Positions 5,019-23,598 of a stretch of DNA of 44,723 bases are shown one piece after another. The stretch is from Escherichia phage vB_EcoS_fFiEco02. The notes beneath the pieces are model-generated. The model searched no databases. It was not told the DNA's origin and saw only the letters and a program-made list of their open reading frames with translations. The position numbers and the translations under genes were made by a program. The DNA lies in the sequence record NC_073316.1. One strand, given 5' to 3'. Every line of letters starts with the position of its first letter. Position 1 is the first letter of the stretch.

Positions 5019-5048
5019 AGGCCCCATAATGGGGCCTTAGTTTTATTT
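5019..5048. terminator. bidirectional terminator between convergent genes
   Basis: hairpin aggcccca-taa-tggggcct followed by tagttttattt; A/T-rich on both sides. Confidence 0.55.
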
Positions 5049-5564
5049 AAATCGCGCAGGCATTAACACCATAAAGGCCGTGTTTGAAAATTGTATTTTG
5101 CATCCTCTGGTTTGGTCCTGGAAATCGAAACGAGCAATTTCATTTTTGTATGCCTTAGAAATCTTGTACGCGTCTGCCAAATAGCGCAGAGTGAACCCTA
5201 TACTGTCGACAACACCCGGTGTGATGTGCGCCACGCGTCTCCAGTCAGGAAAGTTTCCTTCTACAACATCTACCGGAAGTGTACATATAAGCGCACGATT
5301 ATCGTCATAGAAAGATACACTGCCGTTGTCGTGGTTTACCTCTGCGTAGTTAAATTTAGAAGGCTCTCTCCCTTTGATGTCTATGAGAGTCCCTTTCTCA
5401 ACGTTGGTCTTCACATTGTCGCAGAACAATCTATGACCGTCCGTAGACACTATCAATCCTTCAGGGTCTATGTAAAAAGCGTTCAAATAGTAGCGAACAT
5501 CATTTTTAGCCCTGCATATTTTCGCCCCTACATACGCAGGGAAAGTAATTACTGTAGTAACCAT
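5043..5564 (-). CDS. hypothetical protein (moron with own promoter)
   Basis: 173 aa ORF on the opposite strand to the structural genes, with SD aggaga and its own strong promoter; no recognisable motif. Confidence 0.55.
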   Translation of the reverse strand: MVTTVITFPAYVGAKICRAKNDVRYYLNAFYIDPEGLIVSTDGHRLFCDNVKTNVEKGTLIDIKGREPSKFNYAEVNHDNGSVSFYDDNRALICTLPVDVVEGNFPDWRRVAHITPGVVDSIGFTLRYLADAYKISKAYKNEIARFDFQDQTRGCKIQFSNTAFMVLMPARFK

Positions 5565-5591
5565 TTATCATCTCCTGTTTAAGTTAACCGA

Positions 5592-12933: not shown

Positions 12934-13566
12934 ATGTTCTTGTATGAAGAATTTGAAAAGATACCAGCATCAAAACGGGCGGTATCATGCCGTAAAACAA
13001 TCTGCGGAGTCGGTGTCAACGATGCAGATTTCACCACCAGTATTTTCAACGGCAAAAAGTCTGTTAACCACCCGGTGTACGATATTTGGTGTGCGATGAT
13101 ATTCAGGTGCTACCATGGGTCCGTTAAGCATCCAACATACTCAGGAGTGGTAGTGTGTGAAGACTGGCTGTATTTCTCCAACTACTTTAAATGGTACAAA
13201 GATAACTACGTAGAGGGTTGGCATGTTGACAAAGATTTGCTTACGGATTCTAAAGAATACTCACCGGATACCTGTATATTTGTCCCAAGAGTTTTAAACA
13301 ACTTTCTAACCGACAGCGCAGCGGCTAGAGGTGACCTACCGATAGGCCTTACTTATAGGAAAACAAACGGCAAGATTCGATGCAGGGTTAATAATCCGCT
13401 AACCGGGGTGCGCGAAAACTTAGGCGATTTTACCGATTTGGATGAAGCCATCAAGGCCAGAACGCTGCGGAAGTTAGAGATAGCCGGAGAACTTAAGCCA
13501 CTTATGGATTCCATAGACGGGAGAATCTATCCGAGGGCCGTTTCTGTAATTAAGGCACAACGATAA
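12934..13566 (+). CDS. HNH-like homing endonuclease with AP2-like domain (paralog of 3983-4552)
   Basis: shared motifs CEDWLYFSNYFKW, GWHVDKDLL, CIFVPRVLNNFL and C-terminal LGDFTDLDEAIKA; SD gaggtga. Confidence 0.55.
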   Translation: MFLYEEFEKIPASKRAVSCRKTICGVGVNDADFTTSIFNGKKSVNHPVYDIWCAMIFRCYHGSVKHPTYSGVVVCEDWLYFSNYFKWYKDNYVEGWHVDKDLLTDSKEYSPDTCIFVPRVLNNFLTDSAAARGDLPIGLTYRKTNGKIRCRVNNPLTGVRENLGDFTDLDEAIKARTLRKLEIAGELKPLMDSIDGRIYPRAVSVIKAQR

Positions 13567-13570
13567 AACT

Positions 13571-13594
13571 AAGGCCCCTTTCGGGGCCTTTTTC
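13571..13594. terminator. bidirectional terminator
   Basis: hairpin aaggcccc-tttc-ggggcctt flanked by A/T runs on both strands; between convergent genes. Confidence 0.55.
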
Positions 13595-13825
13595 TTACTC
13601 ATCAATATTGCTTCGGTACTCCCGTAACTTCTCCAGACTTTCAATTGCTTCCGCTAAGTCTGTCCCGGTATCTTTGTGGCCGCGAAGACCCATGCACAAT
13701 AACTTCTTCAATGCGTGCTGTAACGCCGGGTCGCGTATACCGAATGCGCGTAGTACATCGTAAACGTCTACAGTCATAGTGCTGCCGTAGGTGTTTGTCA
13801 TTGTGCGGTTGTATTTATTTGTCAC
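13595..13825 (-). CDS. hypothetical small protein
   Basis: 76 aa, last gene of the - strand island. Confidence 0.45.
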   Translation of the reverse strand: MTNKYNRTMTNTYGSTMTVDVYDVLRAFGIRDPALQHALKKLLCMGLRGHKDTGTDLAEAIESLEKLREYRSNIDE

Positions 13826-14015
13826 TGTTAACTCTCTTAAATCTGGCTATGCCTGACTCGTTAATGTTGCCTATTTCAAAGAAGCTGCGATATTTAGGCG
13901 AATACATTCTTACATCGCCATTCTCTAGGGTGGTCCCTTCATATACAGCACCTACTTCGAATCCATTTTTCTCCGCGTACGGACTAACATCGGTACATTC
14001 ATACATGTCTTTCAT
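13815..14015 (-). CDS. hypothetical small protein
   Basis: 66 aa, overlaps the neighbouring genes in the island operon. Confidence 0.4.
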   Translation of the reverse strand: MKDMYECTDVSPYAEKNGFEVGAVYEGTTLENGDVRMYSPKYRSFFEIGNINESGIARFKRVNSDK

Positions 14016-15142
14016 CCCAGCATCTCCGGTGAAATAGTTAAACGTGCGACCTCGCCATATTCGGCGCTATAAGTAATTACGTTTGCACTGCGGCCCGACA
14101 TCCACCCACCACGGGAGGCATATGCATCTTTAGCCGCGAGAGTGCGGTGTTGCTCAACAATCATGTTATGGCTTTCTACAATCTTTTGGTGGTGCAGGTG
14201 ACCCACGTGGGCGTAGCTGTAAACACTCTCGCCGAACGCTTTGCGGAACTTGGCGATCATAACCGGTTCGATAGCGTCGAATCGTGCTTTATGCCCATGA
14301 TGGAAGAACAGCGTCGTTTTGCCGTGTTGCACCATCTTGTAAACATCCGGCGACGTATCGACGAACACACGCGGCTCGTTGTCGTATAGCGTACTGAACA
14401 TCTCAGCCAACCAAATCATGCCACTCTCGTCGTGGTTCCCTCGCACAATAAGCAAGCGAACATTTTTATGTTTAACCAGCGCCATATCTACAACACGGCG
14501 CACCATACGAATCATGTAGCGTACAAGTTTCTGATAGCGCGTGTCGGCGTCAAGAACGTGACCACTTGCGGGTGTAACCGCGTCCAGACTATTGAAGTGT
14601 GCAAGGTCGCCCAGCAGGTTAATAACTCCTGTTCCGGCGTCAGGCGCTTTCTGGAACGCAGCATCAAACCAGCGAGAGAACAGGTCTTCCGCGATTTTCA
14701 TATCCCAGTCGTCGCCGCTCTCGTCGGCCCACGCCAGCATACCGAGATGAAAATCAGATACCGTGTAAAGATTGAGTAACTTATCGTCGCGTTTGGCGCG
14801 AACGGCTTTAACAGGCGCAACGGGGGTAATCTCTGACTTCATGCCTTCGATTACGGCTTTCATCAACTCGACCTGACGTTCTGCGTCAGTGTCGGTCTTA
14901 ACCCATTGCAGTTTAGTGTTGCCGAACTCGTCCACCAGAGACGACGTACCTTTAATCTTGTAGCCGTCAGGCACAAGGTGACTAACGTCGCGACCGTGGC
15001 CTACACCTTTCTTAGCCAGCTTCGCTTTACGGATACGGATAACGCGGTCTGAGATGCCGTATTTACGGGCGATGTCGATATTCTTCATACCGGCGTTCAA
15101 TTCTTCCTGCAACTGTTCGTCGGTTATTTTCTTCCGGGCCAT
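14012..15142 (-). CDS. HTH domain + Mre11/SbcD-like calcineurin-type metallophosphoesterase
   Basis: N-terminal HTH-like NIDIARKYGISDRVIRIRKAKL; phosphoesterase motifs SDFHLG, GDLAH, GNHD, HHGH, GHLHH; SD aggaataagc. Confidence 0.6.
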   Translation of the reverse strand: MARKKITDEQLQEELNAGMKNIDIARKYGISDRVIRIRKAKLAKKGVGHGRDVSHLVPDGYKIKGTSSLVDEFGNTKLQWVKTDTDAERQVELMKAVIEGMKSEITPVAPVKAVRAKRDDKLLNLYTVSDFHLGMLAWADESGDDWDMKIAEDLFSRWFDAAFQKAPDAGTGVINLLGDLAHFNSLDAVTPASGHVLDADTRYQKLVRYMIRMVRRVVDMALVKHKNVRLLIVRGNHDESGMIWLAEMFSTLYDNEPRVFVDTSPDVYKMVQHGKTTLFFHHGHKARFDAIEPVMIAKFRKAFGESVYSYAHVGHLHHQKIVESHNMIVEQHRTLAAKDAYASRGGWMSGRSANVITYSAEYGEVARLTISPEMLG

Positions 15143-15206
15143 GCTTATTCCTCGTGCTTAGGATTTGTCCTATTTAACCACAGTGGATTCCTTTAAATAA
15201 AGGCGA

Positions 15207-15533
15207 CTATTTACTTTCCGCGCCTATCGCCCACCCAGTCATTACCATTTGCAGGCGGGTGGCGGTCAGTAGGCTGTAAAACGCGTCCCCGTTTTTCTCT
15301 ACCGAACGTATCACCGTATATGTTACGGCTTGCGGAGGTAGGCCAGATTTACCAACCCCTACGGCAGCATCACACTCGCGAACAGCAGAGTCCTTAAACG
15401 CCTTTACAATAGTAGGGTCGGCTTTCGCAAGTACACCAGAAGTAATAAGAACAGATTCACTAAATACCTGTTCGCACGGGGACCCAAAAGTAGCAAAAGA
15501 CATAAACCCCAGGGATAATACTAATTTACGCAT
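15207..15533 (-). CDS. secreted small protein (candidate superinfection-exclusion/periplasmic factor)
   Basis: 108 aa with N-terminal signal-peptide-like segment MRKLVLSLGFMSFATFG; own strong promoter. Confidence 0.5.
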   Translation of the reverse strand: MRKLVLSLGFMSFATFGSPCEQVFSESVLITSGVLAKADPTIVKAFKDSAVRECDAAVGVGKSGLPPQAVTYTVIRSVEKNGDAFYSLLTATRLQMVMTGWAIGAESK

Positions 15534-15560
15534 AATTATTTCCTCAGTAAGTTACAGGTG

Positions 15561-15589
15561 AATAGTACCCTATTATATTGGGGTGTGCA
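15561..15589 (-). promoter_or_regulatory. sigma70-type promoter TTGCAC-N17-TACTAT with GAATAG-N4-CTATTC palindrome
   Basis: 26-bp identity with the promoter at 5592-5620; drives the - strand island. Confidence 0.6.
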
Positions 15590-15697
15590 AGTAGTGTGCT
15601 AGAATAAGTTTGCGCCTAGTGTCGCACACGAAAAGCGGGTGGTTCCCGTCTGGCGCGTCAACCTTAACCTGTAACCTCTTAACCAAAGGATTAAAGA

Positions 15698-18806: not shown

Positions 18807-19553
18807 TTACTCGCTGCGTACTTTTCCGTTACATAGCTCCGTGAACTCAGCTATTATCTCGCTGTTGGCCACCATCCACTCACTGGCCCCATCAAAGTTG
18901 CTTAGCTCCGCCGATACGTGTGCGCGGTGAAAGTATCGCTCTAACATACGGCAACGAGCACCATTAGCGTCTTGGTATACACTAAGCACATGGAACTCAA
19001 ACGGAGTGGAGCGCTCCAGTTGAGCAAGTCGCTGTTTTAACTTGTTAGTAATACCTATTTTAAGGTATTTACCACATGCAGAAAGAAGTCCGTAAATGTA
19101 CCCTGGTTTGTTAGAGTCGTAGCCGTGTTTGGCGCACGACGGACAACCATGCCTGTGCACTAAAATATTATTAACCCCTGTAGCAAACACCCCGTGGTCA
19201 TTACATGCGCGTATCGCTTTGGAGTTTTTGTTTAGGTACGCGCCGCCTTCAAAACCCACGAACGTATATCGAACATCCGCGGATTTTATTTGCTCAATAA
19301 CGGCATCTGTATTCTTGCGGTAGGCAGCCGCCGCGGCTTCTCGACTGCATTTCATACACCCGTGTCCTCCAGAGATGCTACGGGCTATAGCTGAAAATTC
19401 ACCGTGGGACGGGCAAATAAGTCTAATCTTGCTAGTCGAGTCAATGTACTCACTACCATCATAACTTGCGGATATTGTGTACTTCCCGCCGTGTTTCTTT
19501 AAATCTAACTCGACCATTTTCTTCCGTTCTTCCCAACCAATTTTAACGCTCAT
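18807..19553 (-). CDS. GIY-YIG-type nuclease with N-terminal CxxHG…GCxxC zinc-finger repeats (putative homing endonuclease)
   Basis: motif GYIYGLLSACGKYLKIGITNKLKQR (GIY…YIG…R); two repeats CPSHGEF…GCMKC and CNDHGVF…GCPSC; SD aaggaggag; opposite strand inside the tail module. Confidence 0.6.
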   Translation of the reverse strand: MSVKIGWEERKKMVELDLKKHGGKYTISASYDGSEYIDSTSKIRLICPSHGEFSAIARSISGGHGCMKCSREAAAAAYRKNTDAVIEQIKSADVRYTFVGFEGGAYLNKNSKAIRACNDHGVFATGVNNILVHRHGCPSCAKHGYDSNKPGYIYGLLSACGKYLKIGITNKLKQRLAQLERSTPFEFHVLSVYQDANGARCRMLERYFHRAHVSAELSNFDGASEWMVANSEIIAEFTELCNGKVRSE

Positions 19554-20187: not shown

Positions 20188-20699
20188 GCCAGGAATCAGT
20201 AGAAGCCGCCTATCGCCGTAAGCTGGCCTCAAATCCCGACGGCGAGATGGACTACATCACGTTGCAAATCAGCCACCCGTTGCTGTCGAAGACGTACTAT
20301 CTTGTTCGAGGGCTACAGGAACTTACGGCAACACTGGAGACAGGCGAAACAATCACGTTCGAGCCAACACCGATGGAAGCGTCGGGAGCCGCTAACAATA
20401 ACGACATGGACCAGACGACGACGTTTACACTTCCTGACGTCGGAAATTTACTGGACGATGAACTGGATAATATTCCGATGGATAGTACTGAGTTGCCGAA
20501 GTTCATATTTCGCCGTTATGTCAGCACCGACCTGTCTTACCCGGCAGACGGCCCTGTGGCATACGAGGCGCAGACCATAGCTCAGGACAAGGGGCGATTC
20601 TCCGCTAATTTAGGGACACCTATGCTTAACCAACGAAGCACTGGTATACTCATGACACCTAAAGAGATACCTTTATTACGCGGCCTGTTAATAACATGA
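20184..20699 (+). CDS. minor tail protein (gpL-like position)
   Basis: ATG at 20184 overlaps the upstream stop (ATGA). Confidence 0.45.
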   Translation: MSQESVEAAYRRKLASNPDGEMDYITLQISHPLLSKTYYLVRGLQELTATLETGETITFEPTPMEASGAANNNDMDQTTTFTLPDVGNLLDDELDNIPMDSTELPKFIFRRYVSTDLSYPADGPVAYEAQTIAQDKGRFSANLGTPMLNQRSTGILMTPKEIPLLRGLLIT

Positions 20700-21061
20700 A
20701 CATTAACGACTACACGGGAATACCTTACGACTTTCGCAAACGCAATTGCTGGCATCACGTGCGTATTGTCCGTGCGGATGCCGGGTTAGCCACACCGGCG
20801 TTCGACGCTACAAGCCCAACGGCAATTAACGACGCGTTTGACGAAGGGCATCGCAACACGAAGGGGCTTACGAAAATTGATAAGCCTGAGAACTTGTGCG
20901 CGGTTCTTATGGGTAGGCGCCGCGGCGGCAGAATCGTGTGGCACGCCGGGGTCTACTTTGACGGAATGGTGAGTCATTGCGAGATGGCCTCCCGTCAGGT
21001 ACGGCTAGACCGGCTTGTTGACCTGAGCGACCTGTACACGGAGATTGAATTTTGGCGATAA
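20696..21061 (+). CDS. tail assembly protein with NlpC/P60-like motif (gpK-like)
   Basis: 121 aa; Cys in NCWHH and His in WHAGVYF consistent with an NlpC/P60 Cys-His pair. Confidence 0.5.
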   Translation: MNINDYTGIPYDFRKRNCWHHVRIVRADAGLATPAFDATSPTAINDAFDEGHRNTKGLTKIDKPENLCAVLMGRRRGGRIVWHAGVYFDGMVSHCEMASRQVRLDRLVDLSDLYTEIEFWR

Positions 21062-23598
21062 TCCTGCACTACACGCGAAATGCTAACGGTGTTTTCGACC
21101 GCACAAAACACGTCGGGATGCCGATGGAGTTTGTCGTTAACCGTATTCCTGACGGCGTGCCTGTGCGCGTCTACCTCGGCGAAATTGGTGATGATACAGA
21201 CGTAACGGACGACTTCGAAGCGCTTAAAGACGAAGACGCGGTGTATCACATAGTAGAAGGAGCTGGTGGGGGTGCGCTTGTAGTAGGTGCGCTTGTTGCG
21301 TTGGTCGTCGTCGCGGCTACGGTTTTACTAACTAAGAAACCGAATCTGGCGGTAACAGCGACAAATAACCAAGCAAAATCCGCTAATAACAGCCTTACTG
21401 ACCGCTCCAACAAGCCGCGTCCTTACGAGCGCTCCTATGACATCTGCGGGACTGTGCAGACAATCCCTAATGACCTGATGCAGACGTATAAGGCGTTCGA
21501 CAATATCGGGAATTTACTAGAATACTCGTACTATGACGCCGGGCGGGGGCATCTACATATTGAGGCTGATGGGGTCACAGAGGGCGATACCCTGATAAGT
21601 GACATCACAGGCTCCTCTGTTGCCGTGTATGCGCCATATACCTCCCCGAACAACACCACATCTCCGCAGCTACAAATCGGGGACGTCATTGACCAGAAAC
21701 TCTATGTGACATACTCCAACGACGACGTCGACGGTATTGTACTGAAAGCGCCAAACGACATCGGGGCTAACCCAAGCGCCGATGGCACCGCGAAACGTAT
21801 TTCAAACACCGGCTACATCTATGACCCGTCGGGTGACTCCGCTTTTTCTGAGTTTCTTAGCGTCGGTGATGTCGCGGTGCTGAGCAACTTTGACGTTGCA
21901 GGCGTCACTAACCTTAACGGCTCGTTTGAGGTTTTATATGTCGATGACTTCGAAGTAAGACTGGCGGTGAATGGTGCTTCTAATTGGGACGCGTTAACCA
22001 GTGGGCAGACGTATACCTTAACAGAGCGTTCTGATACTTTCATTGGTCCGAGAGACACCTACGACGTATCCCTGACCGACTGGTATTACATGGTGCGCGG
22101 AGAAGTTGACCGGGTGCTTGCTAACGTTGCCGGGCAGAACGGCCTCTACAAATACGACGGTGGTTATAGCCGAGCCAATGTAACCGTAGAACTCCAGTAC
22201 CAGATGATCGATTCTCAGCGTAACCCGATTGGTGATATCTACACCGTACAAGGCACCGTTACCGGTAATAGCACGGATTACGTTGGCACGTCTATCTACG
22301 GGCAATTGCCTACTGCATCGCGTTTCCGCGCCCGTATGCGTCGTATAACGAATTTTGATAAGGACTACGACGGTACCGTAAGCGATGAGATAACATTCAT
22401 CAACCTGTACGGGCAGTCTCTGGACACAACCCCGCACTACGGCAACCGGACAACAGTACATTGCACCCGTAAACAGACACCGCGGGCCACTAGTATTGAC
22501 AACCCTGAACTGCGCATGATTGCGACTGAGATGTGTTACAAATACCTCGGAAATGGGGTATTCGATACTGTAATGACCCCGAACACGCAGGCGGTGCAAT
22601 CACTAATTCGACTGGCCCGCGACCCGGCGGTAGGTAACTTAGAACTGACAACCGCAAACATGGACAAGTTACTTGCCGTGCAGGAAGAGATTGAGTCCTA
22701 TTTTGGCAGCGAATTAGCGGGACAATTCTGCTACACGTTCGACGACTACGACACCACGATGCAGGACATCGTTCAGACTATAGCCGAAGCCGTGTTTTGT
22801 ACTGCGTACCGTAAAGGCGCAGACATTATGCTGCGTTTCGACCGTCCGGTTGCAGGGCCTGAAATGGTGTTCACCCACCGCAGTAAAACTACCGGTACAG
22901 AGAAATGGACGCGCACATTCAACGATTCTACTACCTACGATAGCCTGTCGTTCTCGTACATCGACCCGGATACAAACGTACAGGAAACTATTTATATCCC
23001 GGAAGAACTCGGTGCAAACACTGAGGAATACGAATCGAAAGGCGTGCGCAACTATCAGCAGGCGTACTGGCTGGCGTGGCGTCGCTATCAGCGCAATGCG
23101 TTAAGTAAAGTTGTCGTAGAGTTCGAAGCTACCGAAGAGGGGGCACTCGCTACACCGGGCGGCGTAATCAGTGTCGTTAAAGGCTCGCGTATCGCGCCGC
23201 AGGATGGCTATGTTGTTGCCGTTAATGGGCTTACGCTGACACTGTCACAGCCGGTTACGTTTACCCCCGGCGATGACCACTCCATCATCCTCAAGAAGCG
23301 CGATGGCTCCGTGCAGAGTATTTCTGTTATCAAAGGAAACCACGACCGCGAAGTGATTATGCTCTCCGCGCCGGAGGAAGCAATATACACGGGGAATAGC
23401 GCACTAAAAACTGAGTTTTCATTCGGCAACGAAGCAAGGCATAATGCACAGAAGATAGTTGTTTCTTCAATCGACCCGGGCGACGACCGCACGGTCAAGA
23501 TTACAGGCTACAACTATGACGACGGATTCTATAAATACGACGGCGTCGCTCCATACGGTAGCGGTTTCTCCGACGGATTCAGCAATGGTTTTAATTAA
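21052..23598 (+). CDS. tail tip / host-specificity protein (gpI/J-like)
   Basis: 848 aa; hydrophobic segment near N-terminus; position after the K-like gene; start uncertain (non-ATG at 21052 or ATG at 21121). Confidence 0.55.
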   Translation: MAIILHYTRNANGVFDRTKHVGMPMEFVVNRIPDGVPVRVYLGEIGDDTDVTDDFEALKDEDAVYHIVEGAGGGALVVGALVALVVVAATVLLTKKPNLAVTATNNQAKSANNSLTDRSNKPRPYERSYDICGTVQTIPNDLMQTYKAFDNIGNLLEYSYYDAGRGHLHIEADGVTEGDTLISDITGSSVAVYAPYTSPNNTTSPQLQIGDVIDQKLYVTYSNDDVDGIVLKAPNDIGANPSADGTAKRISNTGYIYDPSGDSAFSEFLSVGDVAVLSNFDVAGVTNLNGSFEVLYVDDFEVRLAVNGASNWDALTSGQTYTLTERSDTFIGPRDTYDVSLTDWYYMVRGEVDRVLANVAGQNGLYKYDGGYSRANVTVELQYQMIDSQRNPIGDIYTVQGTVTGNSTDYVGTSIYGQLPTASRFRARMRRITNFDKDYDGTVSDEITFINLYGQSLDTTPHYGNRTTVHCTRKQTPRATSIDNPELRMIATEMCYKYLGNGVFDTVMTPNTQAVQSLIRLARDPAVGNLELTTANMDKLLAVQEEIESYFGSELAGQFCYTFDDYDTTMQDIVQTIAEAVFCTAYRKGADIMLRFDRPVAGPEMVFTHRSKTTGTEKWTRTFNDSTTYDSLSFSYIDPDTNVQETIYIPEELGANTEEYESKGVRNYQQAYWLAWRRYQRNALSKVVVEFEATEEGALATPGGVISVVKGSRIAPQDGYVVAVNGLTLTLSQPVTFTPGDDHSIILKKRDGSVQSISVIKGNHDREVIMLSAPEEAIYTGNSALKTEFSFGNEARHNAQKIVVSSIDPGDDRTVKITGYNYDDGFYKYDGVAPYGSGFSDGFSNGFN

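Follow-up and report, generated by a model that had tools for sequence, protein, structure and literature searches.

Two phage metallophosphoesterases (MPEs) that work without a partner protein are among the described systems close to the one considered here. The putative metallophosphatase A1 of phage T5 is both required and sufficient for the degradation of host DNA (bioRxiv 10.64898/2026.04.02.716235). The MPE gp48 of the cluster A mycobacteriophage A10ZJ24 shows phosphodiesterase and DNase activity in vitro and toxicity to the host, and the host genome is degraded in vivo (PMC12287305). The PHROG 704 gene, labeled "DNA repair exonuclease", is reported to be persistent in the Drexlerviridae (508 of 522 genomes), where it ends the replication module, often beside polynucleotide or deoxynucleoside monophosphate kinases (PMC13164509). 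We found no paper in the literature that characterizes the enzymes of this family. One of them, of 376 amino acids (aa), is encoded by Escherichia phage vB_EcoS_fFiEco02 (record NC_073316.1), whose sequence of 44,723 nucleotides (nt) is referred to below as the window. Its gene lies in a cluster of four minus-strand genes between the tail-tube gene and the tail-chaperone genes. We tentatively favor the view that this enzyme is a stand-alone, metal-dependent DNA nuclease, tethered by a helix-turn-helix (HTH), that acts in the infected cell, most probably on the host chromosome. The enzyme has the following parts:

14012–15142, minus strand: 376-aa HTH-MPE of PHROG 704 ("DNA repair exonuclease"), a predicted stand-alone DNA nuclease
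15011–15121, minus strand: three-helix HTH, residues 8–44 of the protein, from the structural model and GerE/LuxR-type matches
14015–14788, minus strand: MPE catalytic domain, residues 119–376
14741–14758, 14597–14611 and 14429–14440, minus strand: MPE motifs I–III (SDFHLG, GDLAH and GNHD), read from the sequence
14291–14302 and 14189–14203, minus strand: MPE motifs IV and V (HHGH and GHLHH), read from the sequence

All five motifs, which a preliminary description of the locus had listed, occur in the translated 376-aa sequence. The metal ligands D130, H132, D179, N236, H237, H282 and H317 are invariant in 51 homologues of 30–50% identity, and H315 is conserved in at least 90% of the same set. 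The match to PHROG 704 is full-length (E 4.7e-166, residues 4–375 against profile positions 2–389 of 390), and the Pfam Metallophos profile (PF00149) is barely passed, at 22.8 bits against a cut-off of 21.5. The AlphaFold model, computed with 51 diverse sequences, has a predicted local distance difference test score of 92. It consists of an HTH with helices at residues 8–16, 21–28 and 32–44, a long beta-hairpin and helix at 61–104, in which W80 is invariant, and a phosphoesterase core at 119–376. Both the five-motif two-metal site and the beta-sandwich fold of the calcineurin-like MPE superfamily are present. The N-terminal HTH of the preliminary description is supported by the three model helices and by GerE/LuxR-type matches; the Pfam match (E 7.8e-4, with the N-terminal fragment) lies below the gathering score, and the HTH reaches E 0.03 in the PDB profile search. 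This region is kept in most homologues and is missing in those of Campylobacter and Flavobacterium phages. Sequence searches of the PDB with the protein and with the 51-member profile gave only weak HTH and generic MPE matches, while the fold matches of the model have the Mre11/SbcD/PolD-DP1 branch on top. In the enzyme, a LuxR/GerE-type HTH and a beta-hairpin are fused to a two-metal phosphoesterase of calcineurin type, which belongs to the Mre11/SbcD/PolD-DP1 structural branch.

Membership in Mre11/SbcD itself, toward which the preliminary description had leaned, did not hold. Those proteins have a capping domain and a Rad50/SbcC partner, whereas the 376-aa enzyme has the HTH and beta-hairpin instead. 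Neither the capping domain nor Rad50-binding helices are present in the model. The protein ends 59 residues past motif V, a stretch occupied in the model only by closing strands of the core, which leaves no room for a capping domain. The SbcD, Mre11_DNA_bind and SbcD_C profiles gave no match in Pfam and NCBIfam, where only the generic Metallophos profile was hit, and the PDB profile E-values for SbcD and Mre11 were 0.45–2.1. The same description had called the enzyme free-standing, and here it was right, as every open reading frame (ORF) of at least 400 aa in the window has another assignment (terminase, portal, tail tube, tail, tape measure, helicase, PolA, exonuclease and helicase-primase). 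The gene neighbors also vary between phage families (in Dhillonvirus the gene follows the lysis genes). The likeness to DP1 of the archaeal polymerase PolD, a 3'-5' proofreading exonuclease, extends to the phosphodiesterase core alone (209 aligned residues, 11% identity). The N-terminal architecture of DP1 is an OB fold, and the enzyme has the HTH and hairpin in its place. PolD DP1 has a DP2 polymerase partner, whereas the phage has no DP2 and a family-A polymerase.

The two host-degrading phage proteins can be compared as well. T5 A1 and the 376-aa enzyme are both partner-less phage MPEs with the same motif order, and they share local similarity at NHD..S.WL and at the C-terminal W...ITY..G. 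A1 differs in its length (556 aa), in the lack of a recognizable HTH, in its pre-early expression, and in being needed also for second-step DNA transfer. A10ZJ24 gp48, compared by description only, is likewise a stand-alone phage MPE. It differs in being expressed early and, as D10, D41 and H175 place its MPE domain from the N-terminus, in having no HTH. We would liken the enzyme to T5 A1 in its action and not in its family membership. The latter is not claimed, as the single-sequence, hhalign and hmmsearch comparisons each aligned the GNHD segment only. Another close system is the Drexlerviridae "DNA repair exonuclease", which has the same family and full-length architecture, its T1-like homologues being 41–46% identical. 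In the T1-like phages the gene is the last of the replication module, 5' of the lysis cassette, whereas here it belongs to an opposite-strand unit inside the tail module.

The enzyme has an HTH, an intact two-metal site, the fold of the nuclease branch and no partner, and from these features we infer that it is a stand-alone DNA nuclease. The HTH would keep it bound to DNA, in place of the Rad50/SbcC clamp and the capping domain, and the enzyme would degrade or nick the host chromosome, leading to host shut-off and nucleotide salvage, in the manner of T5 A1 and A10ZJ24 gp48. A more far-reaching version, which we consider doubtful, is that the HTH-MPE family is the host-chromosome-degrading nuclease of T1-like, Dhillonvirus and Jersey/Kaguna-like siphoviruses, a T5 A1 counterpart with an HTH for the Rad50 clamp, possibly controlled by the 76-aa protein of the cluster and, in the Guernseyvirinae, forming with an interchangeable superinfection-exclusion gene a cassette of its own that serves both host takeover and exclusion. 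Phage T1 may have a host-DNA-degradation function ("gene 2.5"), which is taken here as a lead only. The PHROG 704 family is very large, strongly conserved and uncharacterized, its "DNA repair exonuclease" label being assigned solely by homology, and deserves experiment. If an HTH-guided stand-alone host DNase were confirmed, it would explain host shut-off and nucleotide salvage in many common small virulent siphoviruses, therapeutic candidates included; it would represent a minimal alternative to the Mre11-Rad50 architecture, and it would bear on transduction risk.

Several points weigh against a nuclease of the host chromosome. The alignment of the enzyme by hhalign to an eight-sequence A1 alignment had a probability of only 18.6%, and we found no report in the literature of host DNA degradation by Guernseyvirinae. 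In the RNA sequencing of vB_Eco_K1B4, the only such study of a Kagunavirus that we found, four genes are early, the sole annotated one being the HTH-domain gene 008, and the superinfection-immunity gene peaks late (PMC12645636). By our reading of the gene numbering, gene 008 lies elsewhere in the genome, and the immunity gene would be the promoter-proximal gene of the equivalent cluster. That dataset is coarse and does not report the expression class of the enzyme; its early set and late immunity gene argue against a T5-like pre-early takeover.

The distribution of the enzyme bears on a serious rival, namely that phage DNA is its target and that it serves as a nuclease in replication, recombination or repair, trimming ends, opening hairpins or removing blocked 3' ends as SbcCD/Mre11 or a DP1-like proofreader would. 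By tblastn, 2,038 phage records contain the gene, and in 1,956 of these the match spans at least 80% of the protein; 4,556 matches were found among 50%-identity cluster representatives. The range takes in the Guernseyvirinae, Dhillonvirus, the Drexlerviridae, Klebsiella T1-like phages, and Vibrio, Rhodobacter, Campylobacter and Flavobacterium phages. When Kagunavirus and Jerseyvirus are compared, no gene of the neighborhood is better conserved than that of the enzyme (85–88% aa identity, against 69% for the tail tube and 46–48% for the chaperone), and conservation of this order is typical of core DNA-metabolism genes. The top fold matches to SbcD/Mre11/DP1-type enzymes, the closing position in the Drexlerviridae replication module, which we confirmed in JLBYU07, and a Vibrio phage homologue that adjoins an OB-fold protein all point to phage DNA, as does the K1B4 study, which does not put the enzyme among the early genes. 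In the Guernseyvirinae, on the other hand, the gene is not part of the replication module but stands in a unit with its own transcription, beside exclusion-type genes. The enzyme also lacks both a capping domain and a clamp or ATPase partner. A further case is Klebsiella phage VLCpiS11a (Guernseyvirinae, 39.8 kb), in whose whole genome tblastn found no homologue of the enzyme or of the 76-aa or 108-aa protein of the cluster. It has the same replication genes (helicase-primase, PolA, exonuclease and SSB, a protein that binds single-stranded DNA), and the MPE is therefore not obligate for replication. We hold the processing of phage DNA to be unlikely, though it deserves to be weighed seriously.

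The same data bear on the preliminary description of the locus as an accessory, or moron, island. That description stands for the variable part of the cluster, where cassettes swap and VLCpiS11a has no enzyme, and does not stand for the enzyme, which is found in those 2,038 records and in nearly all Drexlerviridae. No match to the enzyme gene was found in 5,426 complete E. coli genomes. A plasmid search gave five matches, four of them in records of 44–50 kb, the size of a phage genome. As far as tested, the enzyme is confined to virulent phages. Given the number of records, its persistence and its 85–88% identity on one side, and its loss in VLCpiS11a on the other, the enzyme is a strongly constrained virulent-phage gene in a variable locus, neither a typical moron nor an indispensable replication part. 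Two further observations concern its homologues. Some Jerseyvirus records, for example MT074484.1 (celemicas, 20553–22004), have at the same locus a second enzyme allele that is only ~55% identical and adjoins a 76-aa gene that is 91% identical; this suggests that the enzyme was swapped by recombination within the subfamily. Split homologues, annotated as two or three fragments that cover the N- and C-terminal halves, were met among the BFVD and PHROG matches in Salmonella phage 36, Roseobacter phage RDJL Phi 1 and Escherichia phage Jk06 (phrog_20703, phrog_20762). These fragments may reflect sequencing frameshifts or genuine gene interruptions.

The HTH also admits a reading of the enzyme as chiefly a regulator that binds DNA and controls, for example, middle or late transcription, or else as a protein phosphatase similar to that of phage lambda, with the MPE domain regulatory or acting on protein. 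The HTH is LuxR/GerE-like or sigma-70 region-4-like, and on its own it weakly matches a "late transcriptional activator" PHROG (E 8.6e-4). The gene adjoins a divergent promoter region whose leader is conserved, and one GenBank homologue is named a Ser/Thr phosphatase. The signatures of PPP-type Ser/Thr phosphatases, as in the lambda enzyme (GDxHG, GDxVDRG and GNHE), were not found in the 376-aa protein. We judge either role to be very improbable.

The preliminary description had further proposed a counter-defense or cyclic-nucleotide role. As a phosphodiesterase of nucleotides or cyclic (oligo)nucleotides, the enzyme would then destroy the second messengers of immunity (CBASS, Pycsar, type III CRISPR or Thoeris). 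We found nothing in support of it. Of the known anti-signaling enzymes, Acb1 has the 2H fold and Apyc1 the metallo-beta-lactamase fold, whereas the fold of the enzyme is that of a calcineurin-type MPE. This role is highly unlikely, because the HTH suggests a DNA substrate and would have no obvious purpose with a small molecule, fold matches of this kind rank below the nuclease branch, PADLOC gave no match for any of the four cluster proteins, and the strong conservation and near-universal presence in the Drexlerviridae are unlike those of arms-race genes; the Kagunaviruses of the BASEL collection are, moreover, described as broadly sensitive to the defenses tested (PMC11990801).

The window is a near-complete genome of a Kagunavirus (Guernseyvirinae). 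The 2.4-kb region of the cluster matches 441 phage records at 60–95% nt identity, most of them from Salmonella and Escherichia phages in the Guernseyvirinae (Kagunavirus and Jerseyvirus), and its place between the tail tube and the tail chaperones is standard in both genera. The cluster is already annotated in hundreds of GenBank phage records and is an ordinary Guernseyvirinae feature. Its sequence is not new, with public proteins 97–99% identical, and it does not reveal a new kind of system. PHROG scans of the rest of the window gave a complete small siphovirus gene set:

Plus strand: terminase, portal, capsid, tail tube, two tail chaperones, tape measure, tail tip and tailspike
Minus strand: helicase, family-A polymerase, gp2.5-like SSB, exonuclease and helicase-primase

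In addition to the enzyme gene, the cluster and its flank comprise:

15562–15590, minus strand: candidate sigma-70 promoter of the cluster, TTGCAC (15590–15585), 17-nt spacer, TACTAT (15567–15562)
15207–15533, minus strand: promoter-proximal gene in the variable slot, for the 108-aa signal-peptide protein, whose mature part is all-helical
13815–14015, minus strand: 66-aa ORF, a sporadic cassette between the MPE stop codon and the start of the 76-aa gene
13595–13825, minus strand: 76-aa conserved protein, last gene of the cluster, GTG start
13571–13590, both strands: bidirectional intrinsic terminator, serving the plus-strand tail-tube/HNH transcript and the minus-strand cluster
12934–13566, plus strand: HNH-type homing-endonuclease-like gene between the tail-tube stop codon and the terminator (phrog_953, E 1e-68)

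The four minus-strand ORFs are present where the preliminary description had placed them. In all of them synonymous codon differences from relatives exceed non-synonymous ones (22:7 and 89:21 for the 108-aa and 376-aa pair, 7:3 for the 66-aa and 23:4 for the 76-aa ORF), and the ORFs thus behave as real genes. They would form a short operon with its own sigma-70-type promoter and a terminator in common with the convergent tail-tube transcript. The terminator, which the preliminary description had also called bidirectional, is a stem-loop that scores as such on both strands, with an 8-bp stem, six G-C pairs and a T-run on each strand. The hairpin 3' of the tail-tube stop codon is found in Bas75 and SETP7 as well, and VLCpiS11a has a comparable G+C-rich hairpin at this position. 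The promoter had been called strong. Its position and layout are plausible, because TTGCAT-17-TATTAT aligns at the same position in the Jerseyvirus SETP7, where the downstream gene is different. Its strength was not borne out: the candidate has 7 of 12 consensus positions and was not listed by the promoter scan. We regard TTGCAC-17-TACTAT as a plausible promoter, not a demonstrably strong one. A perfect TATAAT is also found within it on the minus strand, at 15577–15572. The sole minus-strand promoter that the scan did list near the cluster, TTCACC-16-AATAAT (15562–15535), was rejected because its transcript would begin at or beyond the ribosome-binding site.

The MPE and the 76-aa protein are the conserved parts of a mosaic locus, in which the content of the promoter-proximal slot, the 66-aa gene and the HNH genes come and go. 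Of the features of a moron, the terminator and a candidate promoter are present. Presence is sporadic for the HNH gene and for the 66-aa and 108-aa genes (24 and 97 records, respectively), and it is not sporadic for the MPE or the 76-aa gene (769 records), yet the whole unit is missing in VLCpiS11a. In alignment with Bas75 and SETP7, the 66-aa gene, found in Kagunavirus records only and with no relatives outside that genus, amounts to 198 bp inserted precisely at the ATGA junction. In those two phages the ATG of the 76-aa gene overlaps the MPE stop codon as ATGA. The HNH-like gene is 100% identical to FE3_019 of fFiEco03 and absent from Bas75, SETP7 and VLCpiS11a; Salmonella phage S104 has an HNH gene at the MPE/76-aa junction.

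The promoter-proximal slot holds the 108-aa signal-peptide protein, an Imm_superinfect protein or another membrane protein. In SETP7, S104 and fFiEco03 it is occupied by an Imm_superinfect protein of ~59 aa (E 4.8e-15 for the SETP7 protein against PF14373), and in VLCpiS11a by an 84-aa membrane protein only. The 108-aa protein begins with MRK, a 13-residue hydrophobic run and G-S-P, which we judged by eye to be a signal peptide. Its cysteines C20 and C54 are invariant and, lying in the mature part, would fit with export. The family comprises only the 97 records, in 22 protein clusters, and is restricted to this lineage. The model shows a helical bundle after a disordered signal peptide (predicted local distance difference test score 79.8), with no informative structural neighbor. 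These features led us to consider, in line with the preliminary description, that the 108-aa protein is a periplasmic superinfection-exclusion or injection-blocking factor, the functional equivalent of the Imm_superinfect proteins. The signal-peptide-like N-terminus, the two cysteines, the restriction to one lineage and the occupancy of the slot by Imm_superinfect or transmembrane proteins in relatives speak for such a role. Support from position was thus obtained, and support from homology or fold was not. The protein has no homology or fold match to known exclusion proteins and no Pfam match even at E ≤ 10, Imm_superinfect included, and the same position is not evidence of the same function. 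Imm_superinfect proteins, of the T4 Imm type, share with it the slot in the Guernseyvirinae and the character of small envelope proteins; they have two transmembrane segments, whereas the 108-aa protein looks secreted and helical, and there is no similarity of sequence or fold. We consider exclusion possible, with some doubt. The slot as a whole would hold interchangeable small envelope proteins, plausibly exclusion factors, and is a compact natural system in which to compare alternative exclusion proteins.

The three small proteins gave nothing in NCBIfam and Pfam, and the 66-aa protein had no match in PHROG either. The 76-aa protein matches the C-terminal domain of phrog_2452 (E 1.8e-36), and larger phage proteins encoded in replication regions also have it as their C-terminal domain. 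Its invariant core is KY...DVYDVL.AF..PA.QHALKK...GLRGHKD, and it has no relative in Pfam or the PDB. A resemblance to DUF3310 was not confirmed by Pfam and was dropped. The 76-aa protein would be co-transcribed and translationally coupled with the enzyme, and could be a modulator of it.

A conserved structured element (15612–15656, plus strand) lies within a leader at 15600–15697, in the 164 nt that separate the minus-strand cluster from the tail-chaperone gene. The leader matches 481 Guernseyvirinae records, with ~80% nt identity between genera, against 46–48% for the adjoining chaperone protein. The element has a 5-bp closing stem around two hairpins, with compensatory changes in 4 of 14 pairs among eight sequences from three genera; 97% of the cells are paired, compared to 33–62% with the partners slid. 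Rfam int-alpA (RF02996) gave a sub-threshold match at 15612–15656 (27.7 against 35.8 bits). The element was not found in VLCpiS11a, which is also the phage without the enzyme. Its G-U pairs fit the plus strand, which makes a 5' leader RNA of the chaperone/tape-measure operon its probable identity. A plus-strand GTTACA-17-TATATT (15551–15579, 9 of 12 consensus positions) is a candidate promoter of the chaperone operon, with a start ~110 nt 5' of the chaperone ATG. It overlaps, face-to-face, the minus-strand candidate at 15562–15590, which suggests that the chaperone operon and the cluster may be co-controlled or compete. In fFiEco03, the first ~45 codons of an annotated 109-aa "superinfection immunity protein" (L002, 4782–5111) overlap the conserved non-coding leader, and this protein probably starts at an internal Met, to give ~64 aa; the SETP7 homologue has 59 aa.

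Two other minus-strand genes of the window break up the structural module. A 248-aa endonuclease (18807–19553; phrog_681, E 3e-49) lies right after the tape-measure gene. A 173-aa RusA-like ORF in the head region (5043–5564; phrog_3007, E 3.6e-36) overlaps a plus-strand ORF at 5091–5582.

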